Assembly: GCA_965203355.1 (NCBI GenBank)
Contig: OZ241889.1
Coordinates: forward strand, 3,584,001 to 3,648,000
Reading direction: 5' to 3'
Source of the DNA: Candidatus Latescibacterota bacterium
GTDB lineage: Bacteria > Latescibacterota > UBA2968 > UBA8231
DNA: 64,000 nt
A program made the position numbers and the translations under genes. The notes beneath the pieces are model-generated. The model searched no databases, was not told where the DNA came from, and was given only the letters and a program-made list of their open reading frames with translations. Positions 10,801 through 54,046 of this stretch are shown in pieces. Numbering within the stretch: position 1 is the first letter of the stretch; every line of letters begins with the position of its first letter.

Positions 10801-12429
10801 TTCTATCGCCTGCCGCGCGACACCCCGCCTCTGTACGAAGGCGGCCTCATCCGCGACCGCGCTTGGCGCGGCCTACAGGATTCCATCTTGGACTACGTGC
10901 AGAGCGCGTTTGGCGACCGCGCTTTGGTGGTGCCGCGCGCTTGGTATTTGTCGCCGGTCGAATCCGAGCGGGCCTTTATCGACCTAACCGCCACCGCCAC
11001 CGGCGCGGCCAGTTTCGCGCATGGCGTGGTGGGCCTACAGCCGGCTGAAGCCCAGGTAACGGGCCTGGACGCGCACATCTCGGCGGGCCGCTTCTTTGCG
11101 GCGGGCGACGACCAGGTCGTCATCTTGCCCGACAGCCTAGCCGCGCTCATCGGCATTGGTCCCGAAAACGTGGGCACGGCGTCCATCGCGCTATACGGCG
11201 AGGAGTACCAAGTCATTGGCCTGTTTGACAGCGCGGCCCTGAAAGAAGTCGTCGATCTCGATGGCGAGCGTCTGACGCCGGTGGATACGGTCAAAGACGC
11301 CGGCCTCATCGCGCGCGAGAGCACCGAAGACCCACGCGCCTTGGCCGCCACCGCGGTCGAAACCTTCAACCACCTCGAAGTAATCAACACCCTCTTCTTG
11401 CCCTATGAGCGCGTCCGCGCCATGGACGGCCGCCTGCGCTCCATCGCCATTGCTGCGGACGCGGGCGACCCGGAATTTGTCCAGCGCGTAGAGTCCTTTA
11501 TGTCGCGGGTCGCGCTGACCCTGTTCGTCGGCCAAGGCGACCGGGTCGTGGCGTACAGTTCGATCGGCTCCACCCAAATAAGCGGGGCCGGCCAACTCTT
11601 GGTGCCGATCATCATCGCCGCCTTGATCGTGCTCAATACCATGATGGGAGCCGTGTACGAGCGCGTGCGCGAAATCGGCATCTACAGCGTGGTCGGCTTG
11701 GCCCCCAGCCACATCGGCCTGCTATTCTTGGCCGAGTCCACGGTCTTTGCCACCTTTGGCGCGGTGGTCGGTTACGTCCTCGGCCAAGTCGCCCATCTGT
11801 TCATGCTGCAATACGGGCTGCTGGCCGGCCTGACGCTCAACTACTCGTCGCTGTCGGCGGTGTGGGCTACGATCATCGTCATCGGCACGGTCTATTTATC
11901 GACCTTGTATCCAGCGTGCCTAGCGGCCAACATGGCCGTCCCGGACGTGACGCGGCAATGGCAATTCCCCCCACCCGCTGGCGACCACTGGCGCTTTGAC
12001 TTTCCCTTCACGGTCGGCGGGGCCGAAGTGCCGAGCATGTACGTGTACCTCAAATCGGTTTTCGCCGCCTACGGCGAAGGCTCAATCGGCGACTTCATCG
12101 CCCGCGACATCGAGCTATCCGTCACCCCGGACGGGCCGGAGCCATCCTACGCCATTGCCATGAGCACTTGGCTGGCTCCCTACGACCTCGGCATCAGCCA
12201 ACAGGTACGCCTACGGGCAACTCCCACGGGCGAGCACCGCATCTACAAGATCGAGACCCACATCGAACGCCTCAGCGGCGACGTGGCCTCTTGGCAGCGA
12301 ATGAATCGCAAATTCCTCAACGTGCTGCGCAAGCGATTCCTCGTCTGGCGCACTCTGGCGCCGGGGATCCGCCAAGAGTACCACACGCGGGTGTCGGCCG
12401 AATTTGCCCACAGCGCGGAACCGACATGA
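7837..12429 (+). CDS. M28-peptidase-like/PA domain + FtsX (MacB-type) permease fusion
   Basis: AHYD...PGAENATG...LLEIAR M28-like core, SNLSKRRLRTALT and NTMMGAVYERVREIGIYSVVGLAP FtsX signatures, two TM clusters. Confidence 0.8.
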   Translation: MLIKSLLFATAAFFLLSVTAFNPATIARWMERAIGWEPRREVPATSEAPSLREAVAQINAADLAHHLRILTADSSRVTGYAGATNAARYIEGAFRRLGLQVTSEFFPLSVPLDRGGRLRLVGSDESIPIYGLWPNHVRTPSLPPGGVSGHLIDLGRGSLAAMDGKRLAGSVALMGFGSGNAHVQARALGAQAILLYDDGRVTRSQAAEKFLQVPVDIPRFWVEAADAELLRQHAPSGNAHVHLTARMDWESVQARNIFAVLPGLAEDMPRGQRREIQPWDEQIIVLQAHYDAISVVPALAPGAENATGMAALLEIARLLVAEGTRYTVLFLATPGHFQGLAGVNDFLYRHARKSAHFRDQIPPADRIDFRLFIGLDLASHSPQVGSFTLGTFYNSAWRNDDYQKNLMAHYASRFARYNREIFADSTRYQDAIAPPKRVWKNFMPVRLALDSEAAAFVGKESLSFVTPNQLRQRVDTPLDRLEFVALDNLAEQTRTLAGLLLKAASDPDFFNDTKLTLRDWGHSLAGNIYWFDRDVNFAVPKAPVPNALVTYLQPGPNAVAGVRTLMATHGDESGYFKFDIVRNRFANRIQAFELDEYGRIVSAPDLGEEGDKTYPGTQPYGWWENRMLQVLFRCRALSFLEVVDPRYLSAMDRVNVLGANDAPPRSFSLSYIENQSAGQDRVVQAGVVFAEPGTRVKILAGEGAFGGESALAGVRYMLTNADSALFADLDPARVDLATIERAQGAGFRVEQGLIPYPAWQAARDIWIINEARIKQMVRHGIVLDQLQAMHEQARAALLEASDKRAAFDYTGYQRAVRRALGLEARIYPEIKATANDAVRAVIFYFALLLPFAFFCERFFCGFPDVRRQIAGFVGIFVLVFLILRFVHPAFKLSTSPYIIFLAFVILALGVLVIFIVVARFKALLQRRKGAAAGLHETDVGRIAAGFAAVLLGISNLSKRRLRTALTAATLTFLTFTVNSFTSVKSSFDFYRLPRDTPPLYEGGLIRDRAWRGLQDSILDYVQSAFGDRALVVPRAWYLSPVESERAFIDLTATATGAASFAHGVVGLQPAEAQVTGLDAHISAGRFFAAGDDQVVILPDSLAALIGIGPENVGTASIALYGEEYQVIGLFDSAALKEVVDLDGERLTPVDTVKDAGLIARESTEDPRALAATAVETFNHLEVINTLFLPYERVRAMDGRLRSIAIAADAGDPEFVQRVESFMSRVALTLFVGQGDRVVAYSSIGSTQISGAGQLLVPIIIAALIVLNTMMGAVYERVREIGIYSVVGLAPSHIGLLFLAESTVFATFGAVVGYVLGQVAHLFMLQYGLLAGLTLNYSSLSAVWATIIVIGTVYLSTLYPACLAANMAVPDVTRQWQFPPPAGDHWRFDFPFTVGGAEVPSMYVYLKSVFAAYGEGSIGDFIARDIELSVTPDGPEPSYAIAMSTWLAPYDLGISQQVRLRATPTGEHRIYKIETHIERLSGDVASWQRMNRKFLNVLRKRFLVWRTLAPGIRQEYHTRVSAEFAHSAEPT

Positions 12430-17386: not shown

Positions 17387-17451
17387 CCGGCTAAAATGTT
17401 AAATTGGCAGGTTATTCGCGCTTTTCCACCCCTGAGAACAGAGGAGTACGC

Positions 17452-18993
17452 ATGAACCTGAGTTGGTTTGACTACGCCATCGTCCTCGTCTATGTCGGCG
17501 GCACCATCGTCGCAGGCACGTTCGCCCGCGGTGCCATCAAGGGCATCTCCGACTTCCTCGTCGCCGGCCGCGGCCTCAAAACCCACATGGCCGTCGCCAC
17601 GATGGTCTCGACCGGCCTCGGGCTGGTAACGGTCATGTACATGGCCGAGGAAGGCTTCAAATACGGCTTCGTGCCTTTCGTCTTTGGCCTCATGGCGCTG
17701 ATCACCACCGCGATCATCGGTCGCACGGGCTTTATCGTCAGCCGCCTGCGCCACTTGCAGATAATGACCGTGCCCGAGTTCTACGAACTCAAGTACACGC
17801 GCGGGGTGCGCCTACTCGGCGGCATCATCCTCACCCTGGCCGGCACCCTCAACATGGGACTGTTTCCCATCCTCGGCAGCAAATTCGTCGTTGGCTTCAC
17901 CGGCCTCGACAAGGAATACGTGAACTACGTCATGGTCGGCATGTTGCTCATCGTCGTCTTCTACACCCTGATGGGCGGCATGGTCTCGGTGGTGCTGACG
18001 GATTTCGCGCAGTTTGTGCTGCTGGCGCTGGGATTTTTCTTCGGCACCTATGTCATTCTCAATCATCCGCAACTCGGCTGGGGCAGCCTCGTCGAAGCCG
18101 TGCAAGTCCACAAAGGCGACATCGGCTTTGACCCGATAGCTAATCCCGGCTACGGCATCTCCATGATCTTGTTTCTATTCTGCGTCGGCTTGGTCGGCGT
18201 GGTCTGGCAACCGGAAATGATGCGGCCGCTGAGCGCCGAAAGCCCCAAGGTGGCCCGCCGCGTGTTCTGGATTTCGGCGGGCACCGTCATGGGGCGGGCG
18301 ATGGTGCCGATGTTTTGGGGCATCGCAACGCTGGCCTATTTTGGCAACCCCGAACTCGACCCGCACTACGCCATGCCCGAAATGCTCGGCAAAATCCTGC
18401 CCATCGGCATCGCCGGGCTGCTCATGGCCGGGATGTTCGCGGCCTTCATGTCCACGCACGATAGCTACCTGCTGGCCTGGAGCGGCGTCATCGTCCGCGA
18501 CGTGGTCTCGCCGATCAAGGCCATGCTCGCCAAGTCGAGCGGCGCACGCCAAGCAGACGGCACTTGGGGCGGGCTGTCGAGCGAGCGCGAGATCTACTGG
18601 ACCCGGGCCATCGTCGTCATCCTCGCGGCCTTCTTGGCCATTTTCGGCGCGCTCTACCAGCTTCCCGAAACCGCCTTCCGCTTTATGTACGTCACCGGCA
18701 GCATCTACTTCTCCGGCTGCGTCGGCACCGTGGCCTTAGGGCTGTATTGGAAAAAGGCCAATACCCCCGGTGCGTACTGCGCCCTAATCCTCGGCGCGCT
18801 GGTGCCGCTCAATTTCCTGATTATGAACGAAAATCAGTACTTGGTCCCCGAGTTTTTGTTGCCACTGGTCGAAAACTCCAACCTCGTCGGCGTTACCAGC
18901 CTAGCCTTGGGCGGCCTCGCCATGCTGGTAGTCGCCTCGCTCACGCAGCGCTCGCACCCGCCGCGCCCTTTAGACTTTAGCAACATGGAGTAA
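17452..18993 (+). CDS. Sodium:solute symporter family protein
   Basis: GAGGAG RBS. DFLVAGRGL, MTVPEFYELKY, YTLMGGMVSVVLTDFAQF, AAFMSTHDS. Confidence 0.9.
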   Translation: MNLSWFDYAIVLVYVGGTIVAGTFARGAIKGISDFLVAGRGLKTHMAVATMVSTGLGLVTVMYMAEEGFKYGFVPFVFGLMALITTAIIGRTGFIVSRLRHLQIMTVPEFYELKYTRGVRLLGGIILTLAGTLNMGLFPILGSKFVVGFTGLDKEYVNYVMVGMLLIVVFYTLMGGMVSVVLTDFAQFVLLALGFFFGTYVILNHPQLGWGSLVEAVQVHKGDIGFDPIANPGYGISMILFLFCVGLVGVVWQPEMMRPLSAESPKVARRVFWISAGTVMGRAMVPMFWGIATLAYFGNPELDPHYAMPEMLGKILPIGIAGLLMAGMFAAFMSTHDSYLLAWSGVIVRDVVSPIKAMLAKSSGARQADGTWGGLSSEREIYWTRAIVVILAAFLAIFGALYQLPETAFRFMYVTGSIYFSGCVGTVALGLYWKKANTPGAYCALILGALVPLNFLIMNENQYLVPEFLLPLVENSNLVGVTSLALGGLAMLVVASLTQRSHPPRPLDFSNME

Positions 18994-18997
18994 TGCA

Positions 18998-19177
18998 ATG
19001 GATGTCGAAATTTGGAAAGTCCTCTGGCAGTATGTCTTTATCGTCGCTAGCGTCCTCTTCTACGGCATTGTCATCGCCGTCGCCTACAAGGGCTTTGGCG
19101 ACGTGGCCCAGATGATCCGCAACATGGTCGCCGGCCGCGGGGCCAGCGAATCCGCCGCAGACGCCCAGCACGAGTGA
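18998..19177 (+). CDS. Small single-TM protein (59 aa), probable SSS accessory subunit; absent from the ORF track
   Basis: GGAG RBS. MDVEIWKVLWQYVFIVASVLFYGIVIAVAYKGFGDVAQMIRNM... fills the gap exactly, with a GTGA overlap into the next gene. Confidence 0.7.
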   Translation: MDVEIWKVLWQYVFIVASVLFYGIVIAVAYKGFGDVAQMIRNMVAGRGASESAADAQHE

Positions 19178-20769
19178 CGCCGCGCGTCCGCTTAGGAGCC
19201 GCGCTGGCCGGCCTGTGGGCCGCGCTCAGCCACGCCGAAGTGCAGTTTGTCGAGGTGGCAACCGAGGCCGGGATCGCCTTTCGCCATCAAAACGGAGCCC
19301 AGGGGCAAAAATACCCAATGGAAACCATGGGCTCGGGCGCAGCCTTTTTCGACTACGATGGCGACGGATGGCTCGACCTCTACTTCGTCAACAGCGTTGG
19401 GCCGGGCGCGCTCTACCGCAACGCGCACGCCGGTCAGTTCACCGATGCCACCGACCCGGCCGACGCGGCCCATTCGGGCTACGGGTTGGGCTGTGCCGCC
19501 GCCGACTACGACGCAGACGGCGACTTGGACTTGTACATCACGGCGTACGGCCCCAACATCCTCTACCGCAACGAAGGCACGGGCCGGTTCGCAGACGTCG
19601 CCGACCAAGCCGGCGTGGCCGGCCCCGTCCTAGCCAATCCAGCCATGAGTACGGGCGCGGCCTTTGCCGACTGCGATTTAGATGGCGACTTGGACTTCTT
19701 CGTCGCCAATTACGCCAAGTTTCGCCCGGCGATCCACGAGCCCTGCCTCCGCTCCGGGATGGCGGTGTACTGCGGGCCGGAGGCCTTTGAGCCGCAGCGC
19801 GACGTCTTTTATCGCAACGAAGGGGACGCAACTTTTGCCGATGTCACCGAGGAAGTCGGGTTGCTGCCGGACGCCGCCAAGGAGTTAGGGGCCTTTTTCA
19901 TCGACTACGACCGCGACGGCGATCCCGACTTGTACGCGGCCGGCGACCGCACCCCCAACTTGCTCTACCGCAACGACAACGGCCGCTTTGCCGAGATCGG
20001 CGCTTTGGCCGGCGTGGCCTACAACGACGCCGGCAAACCGCTGGCCGGCATGGGGGTTGACGTGGGCGACTACGACGGCGATGGCTGGTTCGACTTCTTC
20101 GTCACTAACTATCAGTGGGAGACCAACAGCCTGTACCGCAACCTCGGCAACGGCTTTTTCGCCGACGCGACCTTTCAGGCTGGGCTGGGGGTTCCCAGCT
20201 TGCCGTTTCTCGCCTGGGGCACCCTCTTCATCGACTACGACAACGACGGCGACCGCGATCTGTTTGTCGCCAACGGCCATCTCGACGACAACATTCACCT
20301 GTTCGACGCCGTGACGTATGAGCAGCAAAACCAGCTCTTCCGCAATCAAGCAGGCCGCTTTGCCGACGCGAGCAATCAGGTGGGGCCGGGCCTCTTGCGG
20401 CGGCAAGTGAGTCGCGGCGCGGCCATGGGCGACTACGACAACGACGGCGACATCGACATCGCCGTAGCCAACAACAACCAACCGGCCGCGCTCTTGCGCA
20501 ACGACGGCGGCAACGCCCAGCACTATTTGAGCTTGCGGTTGGTCGGGAACTTTGTCGGAGCCGCCGTCCGCGTCGCCGCCGACGACTGGGTGCGGTGGGA
20601 TGTGGTGCGCGCCGGGTCGAGCTACATGTGCCAAAGCGCAATGCGTCCCTTTTTTGGCTTGGGCGCGCGCACCCGCGTCGATGCCGTGGAAATCCACTGG
20701 CCTAGCGGCGCTGTGCAGCGCTTACAGGACATCGCCGCCGACCAAATTCTAACCGTCCACGAGCCTTGA
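19174..20769 (+). CDS. CRTAC1-family protein (FG-GAP/VCBS repeats + ASPIC/UnbV)
   Basis: ETMGSGAAFFDYDGDGWLDLY, repeated DxDxDGDxD, C-terminal GSSY...FGLG...EIHWPSG. Confidence 0.9.
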   Translation: MTPRVRLGAALAGLWAALSHAEVQFVEVATEAGIAFRHQNGAQGQKYPMETMGSGAAFFDYDGDGWLDLYFVNSVGPGALYRNAHAGQFTDATDPADAAHSGYGLGCAAADYDADGDLDLYITAYGPNILYRNEGTGRFADVADQAGVAGPVLANPAMSTGAAFADCDLDGDLDFFVANYAKFRPAIHEPCLRSGMAVYCGPEAFEPQRDVFYRNEGDATFADVTEEVGLLPDAAKELGAFFIDYDRDGDPDLYAAGDRTPNLLYRNDNGRFAEIGALAGVAYNDAGKPLAGMGVDVGDYDGDGWFDFFVTNYQWETNSLYRNLGNGFFADATFQAGLGVPSLPFLAWGTLFIDYDNDGDRDLFVANGHLDDNIHLFDAVTYEQQNQLFRNQAGRFADASNQVGPGLLRRQVSRGAAMGDYDNDGDIDIAVANNNQPAALLRNDGGNAQHYLSLRLVGNFVGAAVRVAADDWVRWDVVRAGSSYMCQSAMRPFFGLGARTRVDAVEIHWPSGAVQRLQDIAADQILTVHEP

Positions 20770-24256: not shown

Positions 24257-26209
24257 ATGTCAACAACGCCCGAGCCGACCGCAGACCCAGTACCGGCTTT
24301 TACCGCCAAATCCGTGCTGGTCGGATGCGCTGGAGCCTTTAGCGTGTCGGCCGGGGCCGCCTACGGCACGCTCTATTTGCACGGTTCTTTTATGGCGCTG
24401 GGCACCAGTATGCCTGGGGCCGTGTTCCTCCTCTTCCTGCTAACCCTTTTTATCAATCCCCTGCTCAAGCTCTGCCACCCACGCTTGGGACTCAATCGGC
24501 GCGAACTGCTGGTCGTCTATGTTATGATGGTGATGGCCTCGCCGATTCCAACCCTCTTTGTCGGCAAGTTCCTCAGTGCCATTAGCTATCCCTTTTACTA
24601 CGCCACCGCTGAAAACGAGTGGCGGGAACTGATCCATCCCTACATCCCGGACTGGCTGATGGTCCACGATCTGGAAACCGCGCGCAAATTTTACGAGGGC
24701 AGTGGCCGCGACGAACCCATTCCTTGGGCCGTATGGCGCAGCGTCATCGGGGTGTGGACGCCCTTTATCTGCGCCCTCTTCCTAATGATGATTTCCTGCA
24801 TGGCGATTCTCCGCAAACAGTGGATCGAACACGAGCGCCTGATCTATCCGCTGATGCAGGTGCCGCTGGCCATGACCGAAGAAGGCGAGGCCGACCAAAA
24901 ACTAAGTCCCTTTTTCAAAAACCCCGTCATGTGGGCCGGCTTTGCCATCCCCGCGCTGTGGGGCACGTTGCACGGGCTGTACAACTACTTTCCCGCAATC
25001 ATTCCCATCGCCCAGGACGTCGATCCGATACGCATGGAGGTGCCGGTTTTTCGCCGCACCGCCGATCTGTATGTCGCGCTGCGCTTCAACATCATCGGCT
25101 TCTTCTATTTTCTCAAGACCGATATCGCCTTCAGCCTGTGGTTTTTCAACCTGATCTCTTTTGCAGTGCGCGGCATTTTTGGCATACTCGGCGTGGTCAG
25201 CACCCAGACCGGCGGCGCCGGCCACGCCGTGCGCGATCCCTTTTTGGCCTATCAGTCCATGGGGGCGATTCTCGTGCTCTTTTTGGGCGGCATCTGGACG
25301 GCGCGCAAGCATCTGCAAGGCGTGTGGCGCAAGGCTTTCAAAGGCGACGATAGCATCGACGACAGCGACGAAATCCTCTCCTACCGCGCGGCCCTGATCG
25401 CGCTCGCGGTCTCTTGTCTGGTGATCGTGGGTTGGCTGTGGCTGGCCGGACTGCCGCTGATTTTCGGGCTGGCTATTCTCTTCTTGGGCGTCGTCGTCAT
25501 CTTTGGCTACTCGCGGGTGGTAGCCGAAGGCGGGCTTTCAGACGGCTCGCCGCCGGTGGTGCCAGCCGGGATTTTGGTGTCCGCAGTGGGTTCGTCGGTC
25601 ATCGGTGCCCAAGGGTTAGTTGTGTTGGCGACGACCTTCCTGTGGACCACCGGGCGCAATTTCGTCATGGTCTCCTGCGCCAACAGTCTGCGGCTGGGCG
25701 AGGAGTTGGGGCGCAACCGCCGACCGCTCTTTTGGATCATCGCACTCGCGCTGGTCGTGGCCGTGGCCGCAGCCGTGTGGATGGTGATGCTACTCAGCCA
25801 CAAGTACGGGGCGATCAACCTGTGGATCTGGAGCGGTGGCAATTACAGTTACATAGAGAAAGTCCTCCGCACACCGACCGATTTCTACGGCTGGGGCTGG
25901 GTCAATGTGGGGATTGGCGCGGCCATTATGACCGGCCTGATGGTCGCGCGCTGGCTCTACGTGTGGTGGCCGCTGCATCCGCTGGGCTACGTGATCGGGC
26001 CGATCTGGATCATGGACCACTTGTGGTTCAATATGTTCATTGCTTGGGGAATCAAGGTCCTCGTGCTCAAATACGGGGGGGTGCGGCTCTATCTGAAGAC
26101 GCGGCCCTTTTTCATGGGGATGATCCTCGGCTATTTCACGCCCGGCGGGTTCTACCTGATCGTCGATCATTTCACTGGCATGACTTGGAACGTGATATTC
26201 TGGGGTTGA
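24257..26209 (+). CDS. DUF6785/DUF6784-like membrane protein (paralog of 12426..14336)
   Basis: YYATAENEW, RKQWIEHERLIYPL, DDSDEILSYR, WWPLHPLG, PFFMGMILG. Confidence 0.75.
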   Translation: MSTTPEPTADPVPAFTAKSVLVGCAGAFSVSAGAAYGTLYLHGSFMALGTSMPGAVFLLFLLTLFINPLLKLCHPRLGLNRRELLVVYVMMVMASPIPTLFVGKFLSAISYPFYYATAENEWRELIHPYIPDWLMVHDLETARKFYEGSGRDEPIPWAVWRSVIGVWTPFICALFLMMISCMAILRKQWIEHERLIYPLMQVPLAMTEEGEADQKLSPFFKNPVMWAGFAIPALWGTLHGLYNYFPAIIPIAQDVDPIRMEVPVFRRTADLYVALRFNIIGFFYFLKTDIAFSLWFFNLISFAVRGIFGILGVVSTQTGGAGHAVRDPFLAYQSMGAILVLFLGGIWTARKHLQGVWRKAFKGDDSIDDSDEILSYRAALIALAVSCLVIVGWLWLAGLPLIFGLAILFLGVVVIFGYSRVVAEGGLSDGSPPVVPAGILVSAVGSSVIGAQGLVVLATTFLWTTGRNFVMVSCANSLRLGEELGRNRRPLFWIIALALVVAVAAAVWMVMLLSHKYGAINLWIWSGGNYSYIEKVLRTPTDFYGWGWVNVGIGAAIMTGLMVARWLYVWWPLHPLGYVIGPIWIMDHLWFNMFIAWGIKVLVLKYGGVRLYLKTRPFFMGMILGYFTPGGFYLIVDHFTGMTWNVIFWG

Positions 26210-43907: not shown

Positions 43908-46580
43908 TTAGCGGTTCTCATCGCCCTGTGGGCCGCGGTACGGCCTCATCACAAACGCCGCGCCCGTAGGCGAATGCCGTGGGTTTTCGTACACAGTCAA
44001 CAGCACACCCGCTTCCACATCCGTTGTGCGCTGCGTCCGCCCCGAAGGCCAGTGTACGCGCACGGCATCCGCTCGTTGATGTGAGCCTAAGCCGACAATC
44101 AAGGTCGCGCTGTTCTGGGCTGAAAAGCCCTCGCCCGCTCGGTGCTCGCGCAGCAGCGTCCGCCCGCCGACATCCACTTCCACTTGTGCGCCATACCCAT
44201 CGCGCGCACTCCACTCGCGTGAAACCTCGTCGCGATCGTGGCCCCCCACAAACCGCAACGCCAGGATGCGGCCGGCCTTGCTGCGGTTGGCAAACAATTC
44301 GCAGAGCGGCTCGTTGGCATTGACGACGGCCAAATCAATGCGCCCATCGCGGTCGAAGTCCAAGGTGGCGAAAGCTCGGCCATCCGCGGGCGAATCCGCC
44401 GCCGACAAACCCGACACGTCGATAAAGTCCCGGCCTTCTACATTGAGGAACAGACGGTTGCGCTGGTATCCGCTAAGCGAAGCCCCGGCGTCGAGCCGCG
44501 CCCCCACGTTGTACGTCCCATCCGTCCGGCCATGACGCACGACCGCGCGCCAAAACAGACTTCAGGTATCCTCGGCCAGCGCGACTTCGGCTGGCGGCGT
44601 GTAGTAGCCACTCAGAGCGTAGATGTCGAGGTCGCCGTCGTTATCAAAATCCAAAAACTGCCCCCCCCAACCCCAGCCCCCATCTTCCACCGGCGAGTCT
44701 GCGACGAGGGAAAAACCCTCGCTACCGTTCCGCAAGAGAGAGCTGCCCCGGGCCAACGGCGCAAACGCCGCACCCGCCCGCCCCGCCGCTTCTGCAATGC
44801 GGCGCCCCGCACTGCTGTGCATGTTGGTCACGTACAAATCTTGCCGGCCATCCCCGTCGTAATCGGCCCAGCTCGCACCCATGCCAAAGCCCGGGTCCGC
44901 AGCACCGCTCTCGGCGGTGACATCGACGAGGGCACCGCCGTCATTGCGGAGCAAGTTATTAGCGGCAAAGTCGTTGGCGAGGTAGAGATCCGGGTCGCCA
45001 TCGCGATCGTAATCAGCCCAAGTCGCCTGTAACGTATTGCGCCACACCGCCGCGTTTGCAGCAAAGCGCCCGGCACCGAAATTGCGCAGCAGGACATTGG
45101 GCGGCCCAGGCGCGTCGTGGATGAGATGGCCGATGCGGTCGCGACTTAGGTCGTACAGAGTGCGAGCGTGGTCGGCCGGCAGAAAATCGGCCAACAGCGC
45201 ACCGCCCCAAGGCGCGTCGCCGAGCGCGGCGGGCACCGCTTCGAGCAACATCCGCGCCGCATACGTGGAGAAGTACACATCGAGCAGACCGTCGCCGTTG
45301 TAATCAGCCGCCGAGACCGAAGCCGCGAGCAACGGCAAGACGCCAACGCCCAAGTCGCGGCGGACGAAGTACCCGTCCTCGTTGACCAAGTAGAGACTCG
45401 GCGCGAGCGTGCGGCCGAGAAATACATCCGGGTCGCCATCGTTGTCAAAGTCGGCGAAGAGCGCGGCCGCGGTGTGATGCTCCACATCGAGACCATATTG
45501 GGCTGCGTGCTCCGTGAACGTGCCGTCGCCGCCATTGTGCAACAGCATGTTCTGACCTTGGCGCACGGCAAGGTACAGATCGTCGTACCCATCGCCGTCG
45601 ATATCCACGACGCTGATGCCCGGATGGCGATCAAAGGCTTGGCGCGTAAAATAGCGATGCGGCGCGACAAACGCCGAGTCGCGAAAGGACTGGCGCACCA
45701 GTTCGGCGTGGCGCGCAAACCTCGCTTGGGCGCGATCCGCAGCGCGTGGGAGCACTTCGTCGAGCATTTCGGCAAACAGCGCGTGTTCCCGCGTCAGCAT
45801 CTCCAGCGATTCAGTCTCCCAGCGTCGAATCCGCCAAACGGCATCTTCCTGCTGCTGCCAGTCGAGCACCAGCCAAGCCCGAACTTGGGCGCGCGCCCCG
45901 TCTTGGGTCTGCGCCGAGGCGTCAAAGCGCAAGCGGGCTTGGTAAATCGTCTCTTCCGCGTTGAGAAAATGCCCGGTCTCAAGGTGGAAGGCCGCATAGT
46001 CGCAGGAACGCAGCGCGGCAAAAAGCGGCTCCCATAGCTGGAGGTCGACGCCGCTGACCTGCTCGGCGGGTGCAACGCGCCAGCGCTGACGCTTAAGGCC
46101 CAATGCCGGTACAATCTCAGTCGCCTCGGCCGTCTGCTCGGCGTCTGCAACATCCACGGTCGCGGCAAAAAGCGCCCGCGCTGGCGCGGCCGGCAGTGCG
46201 CCTTGGTACATCCCCAAGGCAAGCAGCGGCAGGGCCTCGCCGCTCAGGTCCTGCTGCACCGCTTCGCTGCGATCAATAGCCGCCAACAGCCGATTGCGCT
46301 CCTGCACCTTTTGCAGGGAGCGGACCGTGCCGTACCCGCCGAGCACAGCAACGCAAACGACGGGCACAATGGAAATCAGCGGCAGCCGAGGACCCCGCCA
46401 AACGAGCCAACCACCGCCAACGAGCAAGGCGATCTGCAGGACGATGATACCCTCAGTGCCAAGCGGCTGGGTCGAAAAAAAATGAGCGAAGGCCAGCGGA
46501 TTGCCGGCCAAGCCACTGAGCAGCAGGCCCACACCGGCGAGACGCCCGGCCACGCGATGGCGTTTAGTCATGGGTCTCAT
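43908..46580 (-). CDS. Membrane-anchored CRTAC1/ASPIC-UnbV protein of ~890 aa read through an in-frame UGA (44562-44564); candidate selenoprotein
   Basis: ORFs 44562..46580 and 43908..44540 are in one frame (AEDT-UGA-SLFWRAVVRH...SLSGYQRNRLFLN). The FG-GAP repeats continue across the UGA into the ASPIC/UnbV domain. Confidence 0.7.
44524..44564 (-). promoter_or_regulatory. Putative bacterial SECIS hairpin
   Basis: UGA AGUCUG UUU UGGCGCGC-GGUC-GUGCGUCA UGGC CGGAC: 8-bp upper stem, GGUC loop at +21..24, lower stem GUCUG/CGGAC. Confidence 0.6.
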
Positions 46581-47785: not shown

Positions 47786-49345
47786 TCAGTCAAACGGCGG
47801 GAAGAAGGTCAGATCCGCGCCAAAGTTATCCATGGCCACCACCTCGTCGCCGCGCAGACGGGCGCGGATCGAGCGGGTCCGATGCCGCAGGACCAACTCT
47901 GTTTCGGCCAAGTCAAAGCCAATCTCAATCGGCGCGTGCAACGGCGGTTGGGCCAAAAAAAGAAACCTGCCCTCTAGGCGCGGCCGCGCAACCCCTTTTA
48001 CCACTAAGTCAGACGGCGCGACCCAGCCGGGCAGGCGCACCCACAACGGCCCCGGCCGCTTAACCTCAATGCGCAGGACATCGTGCGTATAGGGCGATTC
48101 AACGCGCACGGCCTCGGTCTCGTGGTCAAAGAGCAAATTGACCCGGTGCCCAGCCGGGCTGCTCCGCACCATCTCCCGGTACACCTCGCACAAAGACGCC
48201 ACCGCTCCGCCGACAATATCCATGTTAAAGCCAACCGCCTCCGCTCCGACCGGCTCGTGGCCGTACGGCGCGGGAAAGCCAAACGCTCCTCGGTGCCGCT
48301 CGGCCACGTTGCGCCGACCGTCCGCGCCCTCGGGGTTGGCCGGTTCGTCAATAAAGGAAGTGTCGCGCAACTGCGACGGCAGCATATGCCCCCGCACCAT
48401 GCGCTCGGCGTCTTGAAAGTACTCGCTCCAGCCCCAGCGCCCCAAGATCAGGGCGGTCTCGACCATATCGCCGGTATTGTTCACTTCGCCGCGGTCGGGT
48501 GGTGCCTCGGGATGTGTGCTTTCGACGACCCAGCCCAACGGGTCGCGCATGGCCCACAGGCCATTATCGTAAAACGCCTTGACGCGCAGCAGGAGCGCGG
48601 CGTCGCCCGTCAAATCAGCCAACTGCGCCAGCGACGACATGACGCAGGTGACCGAATGCGTGTGGTCGCCCAGCAACGCCCGGTCGTGGCCGCCGTCCGC
48701 CGTGAAAAACTCACCCGTAATTTTCTCGGCCAATTCCAACGCCAATTCCAAGGCCGGGCCATAGTCCGTAGCCCGATAGTACTTGACTAAAGGCCCCAAG
48801 GCCCGGGCTTCCCCCGGTATGAACAGACTCTCCCACACCTCCAGCCCCTGCCCCTGTAGCGTCGGCCGATCCCAGCCCTCGTCCGCGCTCCAATAGCGGC
48901 GAAACGCCTCAATACTGGCCTCAGCTAGCTGCCGGGCCCGGTCCGAGTCGCGGTATTGCACCAGCGGATAGAGTGCGTGGAAGCCCTCGCGGATATTGTG
49001 CGGAATGAAGTTGACCAGCGGACCGCCCAACTCGGCCCGGTTGAGCGGCATGGCAATGGGGCCACTGTGCGAATAGAACGCCGCGGCCGCGTGTTTTTCA
49101 ATGGCCGCTTCATCTATTTCGACGCCCACCGCGTCTTCGGCGTTGAGCAAGGCATTGAGATGGCGGCCGGGCACGTGCGCCTCCGAATGCGCGGCACTAA
49201 AGCGCAGCTCGGCTTGGGGACGCACCCGCGAGCCGAAAAACGGTATATCATGGTCGTCGGCATTGAAGACACTCGACATCGTGCGGCAACCCAATTCAAT
49301 GGCGCGGCGCACATCCGTGGTATTGACGTCTTGTAAACGAGCCAT
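47786..49345 (-). CDS. GH127/GH146-like (alpha/alpha)6 protein lacking the canonical cysteines
   Basis: HTHS...LAQLADLTGD...GEVNNTGD...EYFQDAERMVRGH...VNLLF...LWVRLPGW. Confidence 0.5.
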   Translation of the reverse strand: MARLQDVNTTDVRRAIELGCRTMSSVFNADDHDIPFFGSRVRPQAELRFSAAHSEAHVPGRHLNALLNAEDAVGVEIDEAAIEKHAAAAFYSHSGPIAMPLNRAELGGPLVNFIPHNIREGFHALYPLVQYRDSDRARQLAEASIEAFRRYWSADEGWDRPTLQGQGLEVWESLFIPGEARALGPLVKYYRATDYGPALELALELAEKITGEFFTADGGHDRALLGDHTHSVTCVMSSLAQLADLTGDAALLLRVKAFYDNGLWAMRDPLGWVVESTHPEAPPDRGEVNNTGDMVETALILGRWGWSEYFQDAERMVRGHMLPSQLRDTSFIDEPANPEGADGRRNVAERHRGAFGFPAPYGHEPVGAEAVGFNMDIVGGAVASLCEVYREMVRSSPAGHRVNLLFDHETEAVRVESPYTHDVLRIEVKRPGPLWVRLPGWVAPSDLVVKGVARPRLEGRFLFLAQPPLHAPIEIGFDLAETELVLRHRTRSIRARLRGDEVVAMDNFGADLTFFPPFD

Positions 49346-49353
49346 GGTCGTCT

Positions 49354-51147
49354 CTAGTTAAAGGGGCCGCCATGCACAAAGGCCCGCTGCCCCACAATCC
49401 CCGCACCCTGCACAATGTCATAGCGCGCCCCGGCCGCAAGCTGTTCGAGGCTTTCGACCGTCCCATCCGGCCAGCGAATTTCCAAGCGGTCGAGCCGCTC
49501 AGCCGCGCCCAAGCCAACGGTCACGGTCAGCGAACTGTGGCTCAAATAGGAAGATCCCGTGCGCACCATGAACACCTGCTCCTGCGTACCCACCCGCGCC
49601 GTCACCTTTGCGCCGATGGCGTCTCGGTTGGGTGCCTTGCCCGTCAGGTTGAGCGCGACTGCGCGGCCGGTCGGCCCCTCGTTGCGCAGCAGGTACGCCG
49701 GACCGCCATTGGTCGTCAGCAGCACGTCCAAGTCGCCGTCCGCGTCGATATCGCCGACAGCCAGCCCCCGCGCCACGAGCGGCTTGCGGAACGGATCGCC
49801 GGCCTGCTCCGACACTTCGACCATGCGCCCGTCGCCGTCATTCCAAAACAACTGCGGGGCCTGCTGGTACTCGATCTCCTTCTGCGTCGAGTTGATCTCG
49901 GGCTCAATGTGCCCATTGGCCAAGATCAGATCTTGGTACCCGTCGAGGTCGTAGTCGAAAAAGCGCAGGCCAAAGGTCAGCGGCTGTAGCGTTGCCTGCA
50001 TCAGCCGAGCTTGGCCCGCCGCATCGACGAAAACCGCGCGGCCGGCTTGGCGGTAGAGCGAGAGGGCCTCGCGGCTGAAGTTGCCAATGGCGATGGAGAG
50101 CACACCGTCGTTGGCTACCGAGGCAATATCCACGCCCATGCCCGCGCGCGCCCGTCCGGTCTCGTCATAGCCAATGCCGGCCGCAAGACCCCGCTCGGCA
50201 AAGCGACCGCCCCCTAAATTTTGCAACAGGAAATTGGGCTGCGTGTCGTTGGTGACGACCAAGTCAATGCGACCGTCGTCTTCAAAATCGGTCATGGCCA
50301 CGCCCATGGACTTGCCCTCGGGCAACAACAGGCCCGCTTCTTGGGTTATCTCCCGGAAGCGGCCCGCGCCCAGATTGCGGTAGAGCCTCGGCGTCGAGCC
50401 GGGATACTGCTGTGGCGTGGCGTAGGACTTTTCCGTGCCGTCGAGCGTGGTGTAAATGTCGGTGCTGGGCGACCAGCGCACGTAGTTGGTCACCAACAGA
50501 TCGAGCCAGCCATCGCCATCCACATCGACCCAAGCCGCGCCTGTCGACCATTCGGGATTCTCATGGCCCGCGTCATCCCGCCACACCGCACCGGCCACGC
50601 CCGCGGCCCGCGCTACATCGACAAAGCGGCCCGCGTCGTTGCGCAACAGCAGATTGGGCCCCAAGGTCGTCAGGTAAATATCCAAGTCGCCATCGGCGTC
50701 GTAATCGGCAATCGTCGCGCCCATGCCATAGACGGAAAAGTCTAGGCCCGCGCGCTTGGTTGCATCATCAAAGGTGCCGTTGCCGAGATTGCGGTAGAGC
50801 TTGCTGGGGGCCTTTTCGCCGCTCCAGCCTTCGCTGTTGACCAAAAGCACGTCCAGCCAGCCATCCCGATCGTAATCAAAAAGCGCGCAGCCGCTGCCCA
50901 TAGTTTCCGGCATCCACTTGTCGCCGCGTGCCCCGGTCTCGTGCGCGAACTCAAGACCGGCCGACCGCGCCACATCGACAAAGCGCACCGCCGGCGCCGC
51001 TTTCCGGCTGCGGCCGACTGCGTAGTCCGCGGCCGGTTGGGTGTATTCGGGCACCGGGGCGACCTCTTTGGGTTGCTCGTCGCCGCAGGCCACCCACAGC
51101 AACGCGCCGACCAAGAGGCCCCCGATCATATTATGAGCTTGCGGCAT
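49354..51147 (-). CDS. CRTAC1-family lipoprotein (FG-GAP + ASPIC/UnbV)
   Basis: Lipobox WVAC, PETMGSGCALFDYDRDGWLD, NRDAIGAKV...GSSYLS...WPDG. Confidence 0.9.
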   Translation of the reverse strand: MPQAHNMIGGLLVGALLWVACGDEQPKEVAPVPEYTQPAADYAVGRSRKAAPAVRFVDVARSAGLEFAHETGARGDKWMPETMGSGCALFDYDRDGWLDVLLVNSEGWSGEKAPSKLYRNLGNGTFDDATKRAGLDFSVYGMGATIADYDADGDLDIYLTTLGPNLLLRNDAGRFVDVARAAGVAGAVWRDDAGHENPEWSTGAAWVDVDGDGWLDLLVTNYVRWSPSTDIYTTLDGTEKSYATPQQYPGSTPRLYRNLGAGRFREITQEAGLLLPEGKSMGVAMTDFEDDGRIDLVVTNDTQPNFLLQNLGGGRFAERGLAAGIGYDETGRARAGMGVDIASVANDGVLSIAIGNFSREALSLYRQAGRAVFVDAAGQARLMQATLQPLTFGLRFFDYDLDGYQDLILANGHIEPEINSTQKEIEYQQAPQLFWNDGDGRMVEVSEQAGDPFRKPLVARGLAVGDIDADGDLDVLLTTNGGPAYLLRNEGPTGRAVALNLTGKAPNRDAIGAKVTARVGTQEQVFMVRTGSSYLSHSSLTVTVGLGAAERLDRLEIRWPDGTVESLEQLAAGARYDIVQGAGIVGQRAFVHGGPFN

Positions 51148-51184
51148 ACCATGTGCGTCCTTCGGCGAGCGGCCCGGCCAACCC

Positions 51185-54046
51185 TCAACCTTCCCCCAAT
51201 GGATGAACGTGGATCTTGAGAGCCTCGCGGTTGGCGTGCGGATGCGCCAGCCGGTAGCGGCGCGTCAGTTCCTGAGCCGACTCGTCGATCTGGTAATACT
51301 GGTACGCCTGCTCGGCGACGAGTGCCTCGTCCTCGCGGCCCAGGGCGCGCAGCGAAAGCATCCGATGGTAGTGGGCGACGCGGTCCTCCGGGTCAATGGC
51401 CAGCACGCGGTCGAGAGCCGCCAAAGCCTCGGCAAAGCGGCCGTCGAGGTACAACACCCGACCGAGGTTGCGCCACGTAGCCCGGTCCTCGGGAAAGTCG
51501 CGCAGCACCCGGCGATACGCCTGCGCGGCCGCTTCGTAGCGGCCATCCTCCTGCAACACCACACCCCAGACCCAAGCCGTCTGCCCATCGCCGCTAACGA
51601 GGGCCTCGCAGTCCGCCAAATGCCCGTAGGCCCGCTCCAGGTCGCCGTCGCGCACGGCCACCTTGGCCAAGTTGCGGCAGCCGTCTAAGCGCTCGGGCGC
51701 GAGCCGTTCCACCCTGGCAAAAGCCCGGGCGGCCCCTTGGGTGTCGTCTTGCAGCAGCAAGCCAATGCCATAGTCGTTGAAGCGCGTCCAGTCGCCCACA
51801 TCCGGCGCACTCGGCGCGGACGGTCCGCCCACCCCCAACGTCACCTCGCTGCGGGCGATCTCGGTCACCGGCAAGTCCGGCACTTGGTCGAAGCGGCGGA
51901 AACCTGCGCGGTTGTTGTTAAAGGCAAATTCCGTATAAGCGCGGTCGAACTTGCGCCACAGCAACCGCGCCCGCAGCGTCAGCGTGCGCCCGGCGTAACC
52001 TGCGGGCACCGCGAAACTGTAGTGGGCTACATCGGCTGCACCCGGCCCAATGGTGCGCACGTACACGGCAGTGACGATGTCTTGGGCGTTGCGCCGATGG
52101 ATGGCTTCGCCTTTTGCATCGACCATCAGTGCCTTGTAAAAGTGCGCCGCTGGATCGACGTGCCCGTCGTCTTGGACCGCCCCGTTCAAAGCTATCACCG
52201 CGCCATCGTCGCTCACCACCGAGACCTCGAGCCAGCCCTCGTTGGAATCGTTGGTCCCGCCCGGGAACGTGTGCCCAACGCCTTTGTTGCGCACCACTAC
52301 GTCGAAGGTGTACTCGCCGCCGGGCACCAGCACAGGTTGGCTTTTGTCCAATGCGTAGTGCGCTCCTTCTTGGTGGTGCAGTGCGAACACATCGACGCGG
52401 AGTTTTTCGTCTTGCAGAAATTCCTCGATCCGCGCGATGGTCTCCTCGTCGCCGCGGATGTAGGGCAAGGCCGTGTTGACCGCCAAAAAGCGATGCGACT
52501 TGACGTACCCATCCCGCGCCGACACGTCGCCAGCGACCGCTTCCTCCAGCGGCATGTGGCAGTCTTGGCAGACCCGCTTGACCTCCGGCAAGTAGAACGT
52601 CCTCGCAGCGTTGAGTGCCACGCCGCTGTCGTGCCAACTGTCGTATTCGTTTTGGCCGCGCAGCCAGCGGTAGCCATTGACGCGCGTGTCGAGGCTGACC
52701 TTGTGGCAGGTCGCGCAAAACTCAGAAGTGCGGAAGAAGGGCTTGAGCATCTGCTTCTTGTGGACGATGGGCCGCGCCTTCAGCGCGGTGTCGTGCAAGA
52801 AGCGGCCCACGCCTTCTTTGGCCTCGGCGAACAGATAGGGATCCTCCTGCTCGTCGGCGATGTTGTAGTTGCCGTTGCCGGTCTGGTCGTGAATGGCGTC
52901 GATGGCGTGGCAACCTAGGCAGGTCAGCCCGGCTTGGGCTTGGGGCGAGGCGCGGTCGATCTCGGCGGTCATTTGGCCCGCCAGCATCAGCGCTGGATCG
53001 TGGCAGCCCGAACACCACTTGGACTTGATCTGGCCCTCCTCGCCCGCCAAGTCCTTGTAATAGGCGATATGCGCGTCAACCTCGGCATTGCTCTCGGTCG
53101 AGTTGCGGCGCATGTGATTGATCGTCGCCTCGTAGAAGGGGTTGTTAAACGACGCAAAGCGATGCGCTGACGTCGCCCACTGTTCGACGATGGCCGCGTG
53201 GCAGCGGGCGCACGTCTGCGCGCCAATCGGCTCGTTGACCACAAAGCCGTACTCGTCGATGTCTTCAGCGAGTTTTTCCGGCTGTGCGCGATCGCCGCGC
53301 GTGATAATCCGCGCGGGCAACACATCGCCGGTCGTAGTCGTAGTAGCCGCTGGGAAAAAGGGACTTTCAGCCGGAACAAAATTGGCGGGAACAAATTCGT
53401 CTGGGGCAAAGTCCGCGACCTGTCGCGCCTTGGAACCTGGGCCAGTGTGCTTGCCAGCGGCAAAGGCCTGCTCGGCCGCCGGCGTGTACTGCTCGCCGCT
53501 ATAGGTCAGTCCGTGTAGCACCACGGCCAGCACCAACAACCCGACCACGGCCGCCGGCACCACGCGATAGGTCCGCGCCGCGGGCTTCCACAGCGAGAGA
53601 CGGCGGTGCGCCAAGTAAAAGAGCGGGACTAAAACCGCCGCCGCCACGTGGCTCCAGTACGCCACTGGATTGCCGCGATTGCTCGCCGCACTGAGGATGA
53701 ACAGCCCACTGATGGCCAAGACGATGCCCAGCGCCAGCGTAGCAATACCCGTGTAGATGGCCCGCTTGCGGCTCTTGCGCCACACCGCCGGTAAGTGCCA
53801 AGCCACAAAGCCCAGCGCCAGCACCACCAACACCAAGCCGACGCCCGTATGCGACAGCACCATGCCTTGGTAAAACTTGGGCAGGGAAATGTCGGTCAGG
53901 GCGAAATAATCGAAATCAAGAGCGTCGGCCAGCCGATTGATCAGCAAATAGAGCGTATCGGCGACCATGAAGACGCCCAAGGCCACCACGACCTGCAAGG
54001 CCCGTTGCTGGCGAGTGCTCAGGCGACTCGGGGTTTTCTTTGGCAT
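51185..54046 (-). CDS. Membrane-bound pentaheme c-type cytochrome (c554-like) with C-terminal TPR
   Basis: N-terminal TM helices, five CxxCH motifs (CARCH, CSGCH, CLGCH, CATCH, CQDCH), GHTFPGGT, TPR tail. Confidence 0.85.
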   Translation of the reverse strand: MPKKTPSRLSTRQQRALQVVVALGVFMVADTLYLLINRLADALDFDYFALTDISLPKFYQGMVLSHTGVGLVLVVLALGFVAWHLPAVWRKSRKRAIYTGIATLALGIVLAISGLFILSAASNRGNPVAYWSHVAAAVLVPLFYLAHRRLSLWKPAARTYRVVPAAVVGLLVLAVVLHGLTYSGEQYTPAAEQAFAAGKHTGPGSKARQVADFAPDEFVPANFVPAESPFFPAATTTTTGDVLPARIITRGDRAQPEKLAEDIDEYGFVVNEPIGAQTCARCHAAIVEQWATSAHRFASFNNPFYEATINHMRRNSTESNAEVDAHIAYYKDLAGEEGQIKSKWCSGCHDPALMLAGQMTAEIDRASPQAQAGLTCLGCHAIDAIHDQTGNGNYNIADEQEDPYLFAEAKEGVGRFLHDTALKARPIVHKKQMLKPFFRTSEFCATCHKVSLDTRVNGYRWLRGQNEYDSWHDSGVALNAARTFYLPEVKRVCQDCHMPLEEAVAGDVSARDGYVKSHRFLAVNTALPYIRGDEETIARIEEFLQDEKLRVDVFALHHQEGAHYALDKSQPVLVPGGEYTFDVVVRNKGVGHTFPGGTNDSNEGWLEVSVVSDDGAVIALNGAVQDDGHVDPAAHFYKALMVDAKGEAIHRRNAQDIVTAVYVRTIGPGAADVAHYSFAVPAGYAGRTLTLRARLLWRKFDRAYTEFAFNNNRAGFRRFDQVPDLPVTEIARSEVTLGVGGPSAPSAPDVGDWTRFNDYGIGLLLQDDTQGAARAFARVERLAPERLDGCRNLAKVAVRDGDLERAYGHLADCEALVSGDGQTAWVWGVVLQEDGRYEAAAQAYRRVLRDFPEDRATWRNLGRVLYLDGRFAEALAALDRVLAIDPEDRVAHYHRMLSLRALGREDEALVAEQAYQYYQIDESAQELTRRYRLAHPHANREALKIHVHPLGEG

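Follow-up and report, generated by a model that had tools for sequence, protein, structure and literature searches.

The window, a 64,000-nucleotide (nt) stretch of Candidatus Latescibacterota contig OZ241889.1, carries on its minus strand a gene for a CRTAC1-like protein whose reading frame is interrupted by a single TGA, and we examine here the proposal that this codon is read as selenocysteine (Sec, U). The proposal came from an earlier note, a reading of the letters of the window alone, which had taken two minus-strand open reading frames (ORFs) for one frame broken only by the UGA at 44564-44562. The frame is as described: between the ATG at 46580 and the TAA at 43910-43908 this TGA is the sole stop, and reading through it gives a protein of 890 residues with U at position 673, in the context ALAEDT-UGA-SLFWRAVV. 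Nucleotide positions 3' of it are numbered below from the UGA (+1 to +3), and residues from the read-through translation.

43908-46580, minus strand: the read-through gene, 890 codons plus stop, encoding a putative hydrophobic anchor, an N-terminal domain without a family, an FG-GAP propeller with U673, and UnbV_ASPIC
44562-44564, minus strand: UGA, very probably read as selenocysteine (residue 673), with TGA in the same column in the clade and in 114 distinct loci
44001-44198, minus strand: UnbV_ASPIC domain, residues 795-860 (Pfam, 62.3 bits, E 4e-17), after the TGA

The two sides of the stop codon belong to one recognizable architecture. On the read-through protein Pfam places FG-GAP_3 (126.8 bits) and FG-GAP (80.5 bits) before the TGA and UnbV_ASPIC after it, all over the Pfam cut-offs; no NCBIfam family matches. 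The downstream ORF does supply the ASPIC/UnbV domain, as had been claimed, since residues 795-860 lie past the TGA, and the break precedes the last propeller blade. The two intact CRTAC1-type genes said to share the window, at 49354-51147 (minus strand) and 19174-20769 (plus strand), both prove to be of the FG-GAP/UnbV_ASPIC kind. The first in-frame start 3' of the TGA is a GTG at 44540, 8 codons after the UGA, and no AGGAGG-like run was seen by eye in the 15 nt upstream of it, in line with the description of the downstream ORF as lacking an obvious ribosome-binding site. Elsewhere in the window UGA terminates 11 of the 33 long ORFs listed, and is therefore an ordinary stop here, again as the earlier note held.

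Conservation of the codon and of the hairpin behind it

How is this gene represented in other genomes? Mostly in two pieces. Among the best 120 database matches to residues 480-890, which are 59-100% identical, 92 terminate exactly one residue before the Sec column, ending in EDT (66), PDL (17), EDS (6), FDT (2) or EDA (1), while the remaining 28 comprise 26 longer proteins and 2 with aberrant ends. The second halves have database entries of their own, some about 205 and some about 370 amino acids long; all 120 listed second-half matches are fragments (43 under 260 amino acids, 77 of at least 300), and among the relatives listed identity over the downstream half runs from 50 to 90%. Because gene callers cut the family in two in this way, in 92/120 first-half and 120/120 listed second-half matches, many environmental bacteria are credited with the wrong domain architecture and the wrong number of proteins.

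At the nucleotide level, 114 distinct loci carry an in-frame TGA at the column with an open frame beyond it. Going by their record titles, they fall under Cytophagia, Acidobacteriota, Gammaproteobacteria, Gemmatimonadetes, Myxococcota, Deltaproteobacteria, Planctomycetota, Verrucomicrobiota and Latescibacterota. These nine phylum or class labels belong to metagenome-assembled genomes and may not be exact. Among contigs taken at one genome per species, 79 loci were read at the column: 49 have TGA, 8 have GAA/GAG (Glu) and 12 have AAC/AAT (Asn), the other 10 being loci in which the motif pattern was unmatched, the locus was cut or a different paralogue was found; in 80 metagenome loci the first motif pattern found 38 TGA sites and 2 Glu. 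Two of the 49 TGA loci run off their contig, and in all 47 that reach a downstream stop the frame past the TGA stays open for 195-635 codons. The codon is also kept at considerable distance: in the phylum of a Gemmatimonadota-labelled carrier, TGA occupies the column in 9/9 strong matches that are only 50-53% identical.

Closer to the window, 167 genomes from the phylum of a Latescibacterota-labelled carrier were searched and yielded 29 strong matches, of which 26 share 66-90% identity with the window protein. Exactly one in-frame TGA is present in 28, and the 29th is cut by the end of its contig before the column. The window's own clade, which bears the Latescibacterota label, has a tree support of 100, and the TGA is kept in all 24 of its coding sequences examined (the window and 23 loci, 82-90% identity). 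The tree was built with FastTree from segments with at least 330 residues before and at least 190 after the column, identical rows being merged; the columns meant for removal from it possibly do not line up exactly with the motif. The codon is spanned with 0 differences by contigs of three other public runs, one of them possibly being the window's own source; a fourth run contains a strain with 78 differences from the window, and the 40 of these that were listed all lie off the codon. That the stop is a recent nonsense mutation or an assembly error and the gene a pseudogene, as might be thought of one in-frame stop splitting a gene while its two paralogues in the window are unbroken, is a reading we rejected and consider next to impossible, being refuted by the same TGA in 24/24 clade coding sequences and in 114 loci under nine labels, and further opposed by the conservation and openness of both halves and by the unchanged codon in the three other runs. 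The UGA is thus not private to this assembly.

The earlier note had suggested looking for homologues with either UGA or Cys at the column: UGA is widespread, and Cys stands there in one protein only (P0083), with Ser in P0003. In the tree set the non-Sec residues are Glu (11 rows), Asn (21) and Ser (3).

The sequence 3' of the UGA can form a hairpin of 6-8 base pairs (bp), beginning 11 nt past the codon, with the following parts:

44533-44552, minus strand: upper hairpin, +13 to +32, distinguished by its pairing, its loop G and low synonymous diversity
44550-44545 and 44540-44535, minus strand: conserved 6-bp core, +15 to +20 with +25 to +30, paired across the family
44544-44541, minus strand: GGUC loop, +21 to +24, with G at +22 and U at +23
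44524-44560, minus strand: lower stem, +5 to +9 with +37 to +41, present in the minimum-energy fold and weakly conserved

The minimum-energy fold of the 48 nt past the UGA is UGGCGCGC-GGUC-GUGCGUCA with a lower GUCUG/CGGAC stem, exactly as had been drawn, and it puts the loop G and U at +22 and +23. Comparison across the family separates the two parts of this structure. In 31 sequences including the window, a 6-bp stem closes the GGUC loop, with 93% of cells paired and both sides changing at 3 pairs; 17 sequences of Acidobacteriota or Latescibacterota type follow a second register, with a one-base shift in the 3' arm, a loop of 5 or 3 nt and pairing in 98% of cells. None of 500 shuffles reaches the observed percentage of pairing or the observed covariation score in either register. 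Between the two register classes, the amino acids encoded on both arms are seen by eye to change together (A..R, Q..T, H..A) with pairing kept. Within the window's clade all 144 upper-stem cells are paired, the only variation being G-C/G-U and A-U/G-U, and synonymous diversity in the clade coding sequences drops to 0.074 over codons +3 to +10, against a gene mean of 0.24 (standard deviation 0.076), making this the second-lowest 8-codon window of the gene (quantile 0.002). The lower stem is paired in 103/120 cells within the clade but in only 43.9% of cells across the wider family, and because of this weakness it is left out of the conserved element. The hairpin of the earlier note is therefore conserved in its upper stem, by compensatory changes and by suppression of synonymous change, and not in its lower one.

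Over the 114 Sec-form loci, G is found at +22 in 114/114 and U at +23 in 107/114, the positions at which the earlier note had placed the loop GU; scored in the two fixed registers, 91 loci have all 6 pairs of the stem, 12 have 5 and 11 have 4 or fewer. All 10 Glu forms have A at +22, the loop G having gone because the loop-codon Val became Met, and 4 of the 10 have an intact stem. The UGA-to-loop spacing is 17 nt, and a passage of PMC10778597 gives 16-37 nt as the range for bacterial selenocysteine insertion sequence (SECIS) elements.

The machinery to read such an element is encoded by the window's relatives. In all 5 of the closest complete or near-complete genomes (orthologue 86-90% identical), selA, selB, selD and tRNA-Sec score over curated cut-offs, and selB and tRNA-Sec are present in 5/5 more distant carriers. 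In each of the 5 closest genomes (G537, G548, G539, G541, G543) selD itself contains one in-frame TGA, which makes selenophosphate synthetase a selenoprotein in its own right in this clade and indicates that UGA is decoded as Sec in these organisms.

Could the hairpin and the open frame mean something else? One alternative is that the UGA is read through free of selenium, as Trp, Cys or Arg by near-cognate decoding or under a variant code, with the hairpin as stimulus, and hairpins after stop codons can indeed promote read-through in general. However, UGA ends about a third of the window's listed long ORFs (11/33), the carriers span many phyla that use the standard code, spacing and G-U loop fall within the bacterial SECIS range, selB and tRNA-Sec occur in 10/10 carrier genomes tested, and the selD of close relatives has an in-frame TGA as well. 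We give this reading very little credence, and it was rejected on the ordinary use of UGA as a stop, the SECIS-like spacing and loop, and the Sec machinery of the carriers. A second alternative is a truly split gene, in which translation stops at the UGA, a second polypeptide starts downstream and the pieces assemble; gene callers do file the halves separately, and an in-frame GTG lies only 8 codons past the UGA. Yet no Shine-Dalgarno-like run stands upstream of that GTG, the called starts differ among relatives, the break lies within the propeller ahead of its last blade, and the Glu, Asn, Ser and Cys relatives are single chains. On these points we reject the split, which is very improbable and would also leave unexplained the invariant loop G at fixed spacing, lost together with the UGA, and the Sec machinery.

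Sec insertion at the UGA, as first proposed, is thus supported by the same-column TGA, by conservation of the hairpin and by Sec machinery in relatives. Conservation of codon, frame and hairpin, and the machinery in close relatives, are demonstrated; from these comparisons of sequence we hold it very probable that the UGA at 44564-44562 is a real selenocysteine codon.

Three groups of relatives deserve separate mention. The Glu forms (L008, L009, L011, L012, L014, L024, L030, L032, L084, L086) are Verrucomicrobiota-labelled and have the column context DLESNLWRTMVR. The Asn forms (L038, L043, L044, L047, L049, L050, L053, L054, L058, L061, L063, L065 and metagenome loci L101-L147) make up an Acidobacteriota-labelled subfamily, with Ser instead of Asn in 3 loci, that keeps the motif ...DL-N-SFFWRQVV, extends 590-670 residues past the column without CxxC, and has a hairpin that looks partly decayed by eye. 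Some planctomycete-type contigs (L025, L031, L098, L104, L127) carry two Sec-form paralogues close together, about 2.9 kb apart in L031.

Fold, candidate partner thiols and the possible role of the selenocysteine

What would selenocysteine do in a propeller? The remaining features of the protein are these:

46329-46544, minus strand: three hydrophobic stretches, about residues 13-84, read from the translation by eye
45636-46328, minus strand: N-terminal domain, about residues 85-315, conserved in full-length homologues
44301-44303, minus strand: Cys760 (TGC), 87 residues past U, a candidate resolving thiol

The hydrophobic stretches at residues 13-84 are probably a membrane anchor that places the propeller outside the cytoplasm. 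Residues 85-315 match no Pfam or NCBIfam family, and in the Atlas only unnamed clusters, with scores of 0.92-0.95. For residues 301-890 the fold is demonstrated as a predicted model, made from a 19-row alignment, with a predicted local distance difference test score (pLDDT) of 84.4 and a predicted template modelling score (pTM) of 0.89; its best solved match is murine CRTAC1 (9etn_A; E 5.7e-27, template modelling scores 0.63/0.68), the next match having an E of 2.4e-8. U673, model residue 373, lies in the first turn of a short helix (372-383) that is followed by a low-confidence loop. Across the same alignment Asp671 and Trp677 never vary and Ser674 and Arg678 hardly do, giving the motif D-x-U-S-x-x-W-R. 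The stretch around U673 is an insert without counterpart in the aligned paralogue 49354-51147, and the insert carrying Sec673 is missing, by sequence comparison, from both Sec-free paralogues in the window. Near the Sec region the alignment to solved CRTAC1 is too weak for an equivalent residue to be named.

We surveyed candidate partner thiols in 147 distinct family members, grouped by the residue at the column and the length of what follows it:

Sec, long tail (61 members): CxxC 230-320 residues after U in 61/61
Sec, short (16 members): U-S-C
Sec, short (31 members): neither CxxC nor U-S-C; 26 of them are the window's clade
Asn, long (20 members): none with CxxC
Ser, long (2 members): none with CxxC
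Glu, long (10 members): 3 with CxxC, 7 having lost the tail CxxC
Remaining (7 members): 1 short Glu and 6 cut at a contig end (4 Sec, one with CxxC; 1 Asn; 1 Ser)

In Pfam the long tails fall under AhpC/TSA and redoxin (PF00578/PF08534), and CxxC is found in 77/77 of the long second-half fragments listed. The redoxin tail is missing in all 26 rows of the window's clade; the successive neighbours of this clade on the tree are all tailed Sec forms, and the column residue changes only 3 times on the tree. The window's clade is thus a tail-less variant within a widespread bacterial selenoprotein family. It does have a thiol of its own: in the context NANEPLC[EQ]LF, the window and 23/23 clade loci carry a Cys at U+87, or at U+86 in the case of one sequence, and this is the only Cys conserved outside the anchor in the clade. 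Its equivalent also occurs in a metagenome relative of 69% identity (L080), and in 29/36 rows of an alignment of the window with 35 database fragments.

A relay in which Sec and a partner thiol form a selenenylsulfide would fit this distribution. We infer, as the earlier note had, a catalytic or metal-binding site at the Sec, and the co-occurrence of CxxC or U-x-C in relatives favours a redox one. We lean, by a little, towards Sec as a redox-active nucleophile that would form a selenenylsulfide with a partner thiol; that this partner should be Cys760 in the tail-less clade is a more doubtful suggestion, and that the substrate is a peroxide or a disulfide is a guess.

A further alternative accepts Sec insertion and changes its purpose: Sec would serve as a soft ligand for a metal or metalloid, or as a sensor, and not as a redox catalyst. 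An invariant Asp lies two residues before U, and in the non-Sec relatives the column is filled not by Cys but by the oxygen ligands Glu, Asn and Ser; FG-GAP blades are metal-binding modules, and U-x-C and CxxC motifs can chelate metals too. However, the fused tails belong to the AhpC/TSA-redoxin families, which are thiol-redox modules, redox selenoproteins usually have their Sec at a helix N-terminus and a thiol pair nearby or fused, and no metal-site motif is found in the Pfam or NCBIfam matches. We consider a metal-ligand Sec unlikely, though by no means negligible.

Taken together, these considerations make it very probable that the two ORFs are one gene whose UGA is decoded as Sec by the ordinary bacterial route, giving a CRTAC1-like propeller that is probably membrane-anchored and outward-facing. 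In the proposed sequence of events, the in-frame hairpin beginning 11 nt past the UGA would present the G and U of its 4-nt loop at +22 and +23, and SelB with Sec-tRNA(Sec) would bind it and bring Sec to the ribosome. The product would be the 890-residue protein, probably anchored in the membrane and facing outward, with a CRTAC1-like FG-GAP propeller and UnbV_ASPIC, in which Sec673, at the start of its helix, may form a selenenylsulfide with a partner thiol. That partner might be the fused AhpC/TSA-redoxin CxxC tail or the U-x-C motif in relatives, and the clade-invariant Cys760 in the tail-less clade.

Several observations weigh against decoding as Sec and against a redox role for it. The folding energy of the hairpin (-18.8 kcal/mol, z -1.39) is matched by 14/200 shuffles and is not significant; the sequence is G+C-rich, so such an energy is not unusual for it, and the hairpin goes beyond chance because of the comparative evidence, not the folding energy. 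Rfam, at E up to 10, gives two chance-level matches only and no SECIS family, a stem is still kept by 3-4 of the 10 Glu forms, and the hairpin overlaps the conserved codons W-R-x-V-V, so part of its conservation is at the protein level. The evidence for Sec machinery is by proxy, coming from relatives' genomes rather than from the source genome. Around U673 the pLDDT is only about 66-70. As regards redox function, the window protein extends for 217 residues beyond U and has no AhpC/TSA-redoxin domain, no CxxC tail and no U-x-C, and no thioredoxin-like gene adjoins its gene in the window. For the association of Sec with CxxC the tree affords no more than 2 independent contrasts between lineages, and the sign test gives p 0.5 or more. 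The near-absence of Cys homologues is unusual for a redox Sec and would also fit a lost or non-redox site: either Cys is unable to do the job, or the Sec is non-redox, for example metal-binding.

We tentatively combine these strands, in a joint reading for which the odds are somewhat against us, into a large family of outward-facing propeller selenoenzymes with a new active site, D-x-U-S-x-x-W-R capping a helix within the CRTAC1-like propeller, in which Cys would be unable to replace Sec. The resolving thiol would come from one of three interchangeable sources: a U-x-C in cis, a redoxin domain fused as a tail, or a distal Cys of the last blade in the Latescibacterota-labelled clade. Lineages that lose Sec would go to Glu, Asn or Ser, mostly losing the partner CxxC as well. 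If this were true, bacteria of at least nine phylum or class labels would possess a selenium-dependent extracytoplasmic oxidoreductase or peroxidase.

Around the read-through gene the window offers little company: the gene is solitary, convergent with a rhaM-like gene and divergent from a 2-hydroxyacid dehydrogenase gene. Of its Sec-free paralogues, 49354-51147 sits in a possible three-gene unit (47786-54046, minus strand) in which a 953-amino-acid protein with tetratricopeptide repeats and multihaem cytochrome motifs (MtrC/MtrF-like, paired CXXCH) is followed by the paralogue and by a 519-amino-acid protein without a Pfam match; the other (19174-20769, plus strand, 531 amino acids) lies just 3' of a sodium:solute symporter gene (17404-18993). 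Elsewhere on the plus strand, a 1530-amino-acid ORF at 7837-12429 combines peptidase M28 with an FtsX-like permease C-terminal domain, and a 650-amino-acid protein at 24257-26209, with DUF6785 and DUF6784 (E 4e-122), is followed by FlgD-Ig and F5/8 type C proteins.

Relation to known selenoproteins and CRTAC1 proteins

To our knowledge, the biochemical role of CRTAC1/ASPIC proteins is unclear. Sec, together with redoxin CxxC tails, offers a testable lead that some members are redox enzymes, and the family adds a selenoprotein with a non-thioredoxin fold, probably extracytoplasmic. It is not found in the main texts of the catalogues examined: FG-GAP, ASPIC, CRTAC, VCBS and propeller are absent from those of the 2026 review and the deep-Sep and BSepDB papers, and ASPIC and FG-GAP from that of Kim et al. 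2016 (PMC4807772), where the putative selenoproteins of two planctomycetes are given only in Table S9. A full-text literature search found no relevant paper joining selenoproteins or selenocysteine with FG-GAP, ASPIC, UnbV, VCBS, CRTAC1 or Latescibacter.

The decoding element most resembles the fdhF-type SECIS of E. coli, with an in-frame hairpin directly past the UGA, an apical-loop G-U at +22/+23 and a 17-nt spacing, and the window's relatives have the selA, selB, selD and tRNA-Sec of the fdhF-type SelB system. It differs in being conserved over no more than 6-8 bp around a 4-nt GGUC loop, one subfamily having a shifted register and a 5- or 3-nt loop. The fdhF SECIS has a bulged U in its upper stem; no conserved bulge was seen in the stem here. 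The host protein is unrelated to formate dehydrogenase.

As a protein, the closest known system is murine CRTAC1 (PDB 9etn), which shares the FG-GAP repeats and UnbV_ASPIC and is the best fold match, at 18% identity over that match; by contrast, the window protein has the Sec helix insert, a putative N-terminal hydrophobic anchor and a 230-residue domain of no assigned family. With its redoxin-tailed and U-x-C relatives it shares the Sec column, the D-x-U-S-x-x-W-R motif and the hairpin, but the window's clade lacks both tail and U-x-C and has instead the invariant Cys at U+87. Finally, the thioredoxin-fold selenoproteins (Prx-like, DsbA-like and AhpD-like) open a helix with Sec and have a partner thiol near it or in a fused thioredoxin-fold domain, a layout resembled here by a helix-start Sec and a possible partner thiol nearby or fused; here, however, the Sec lies in an insert of a beta-propeller, and Cys homologues are almost absent.

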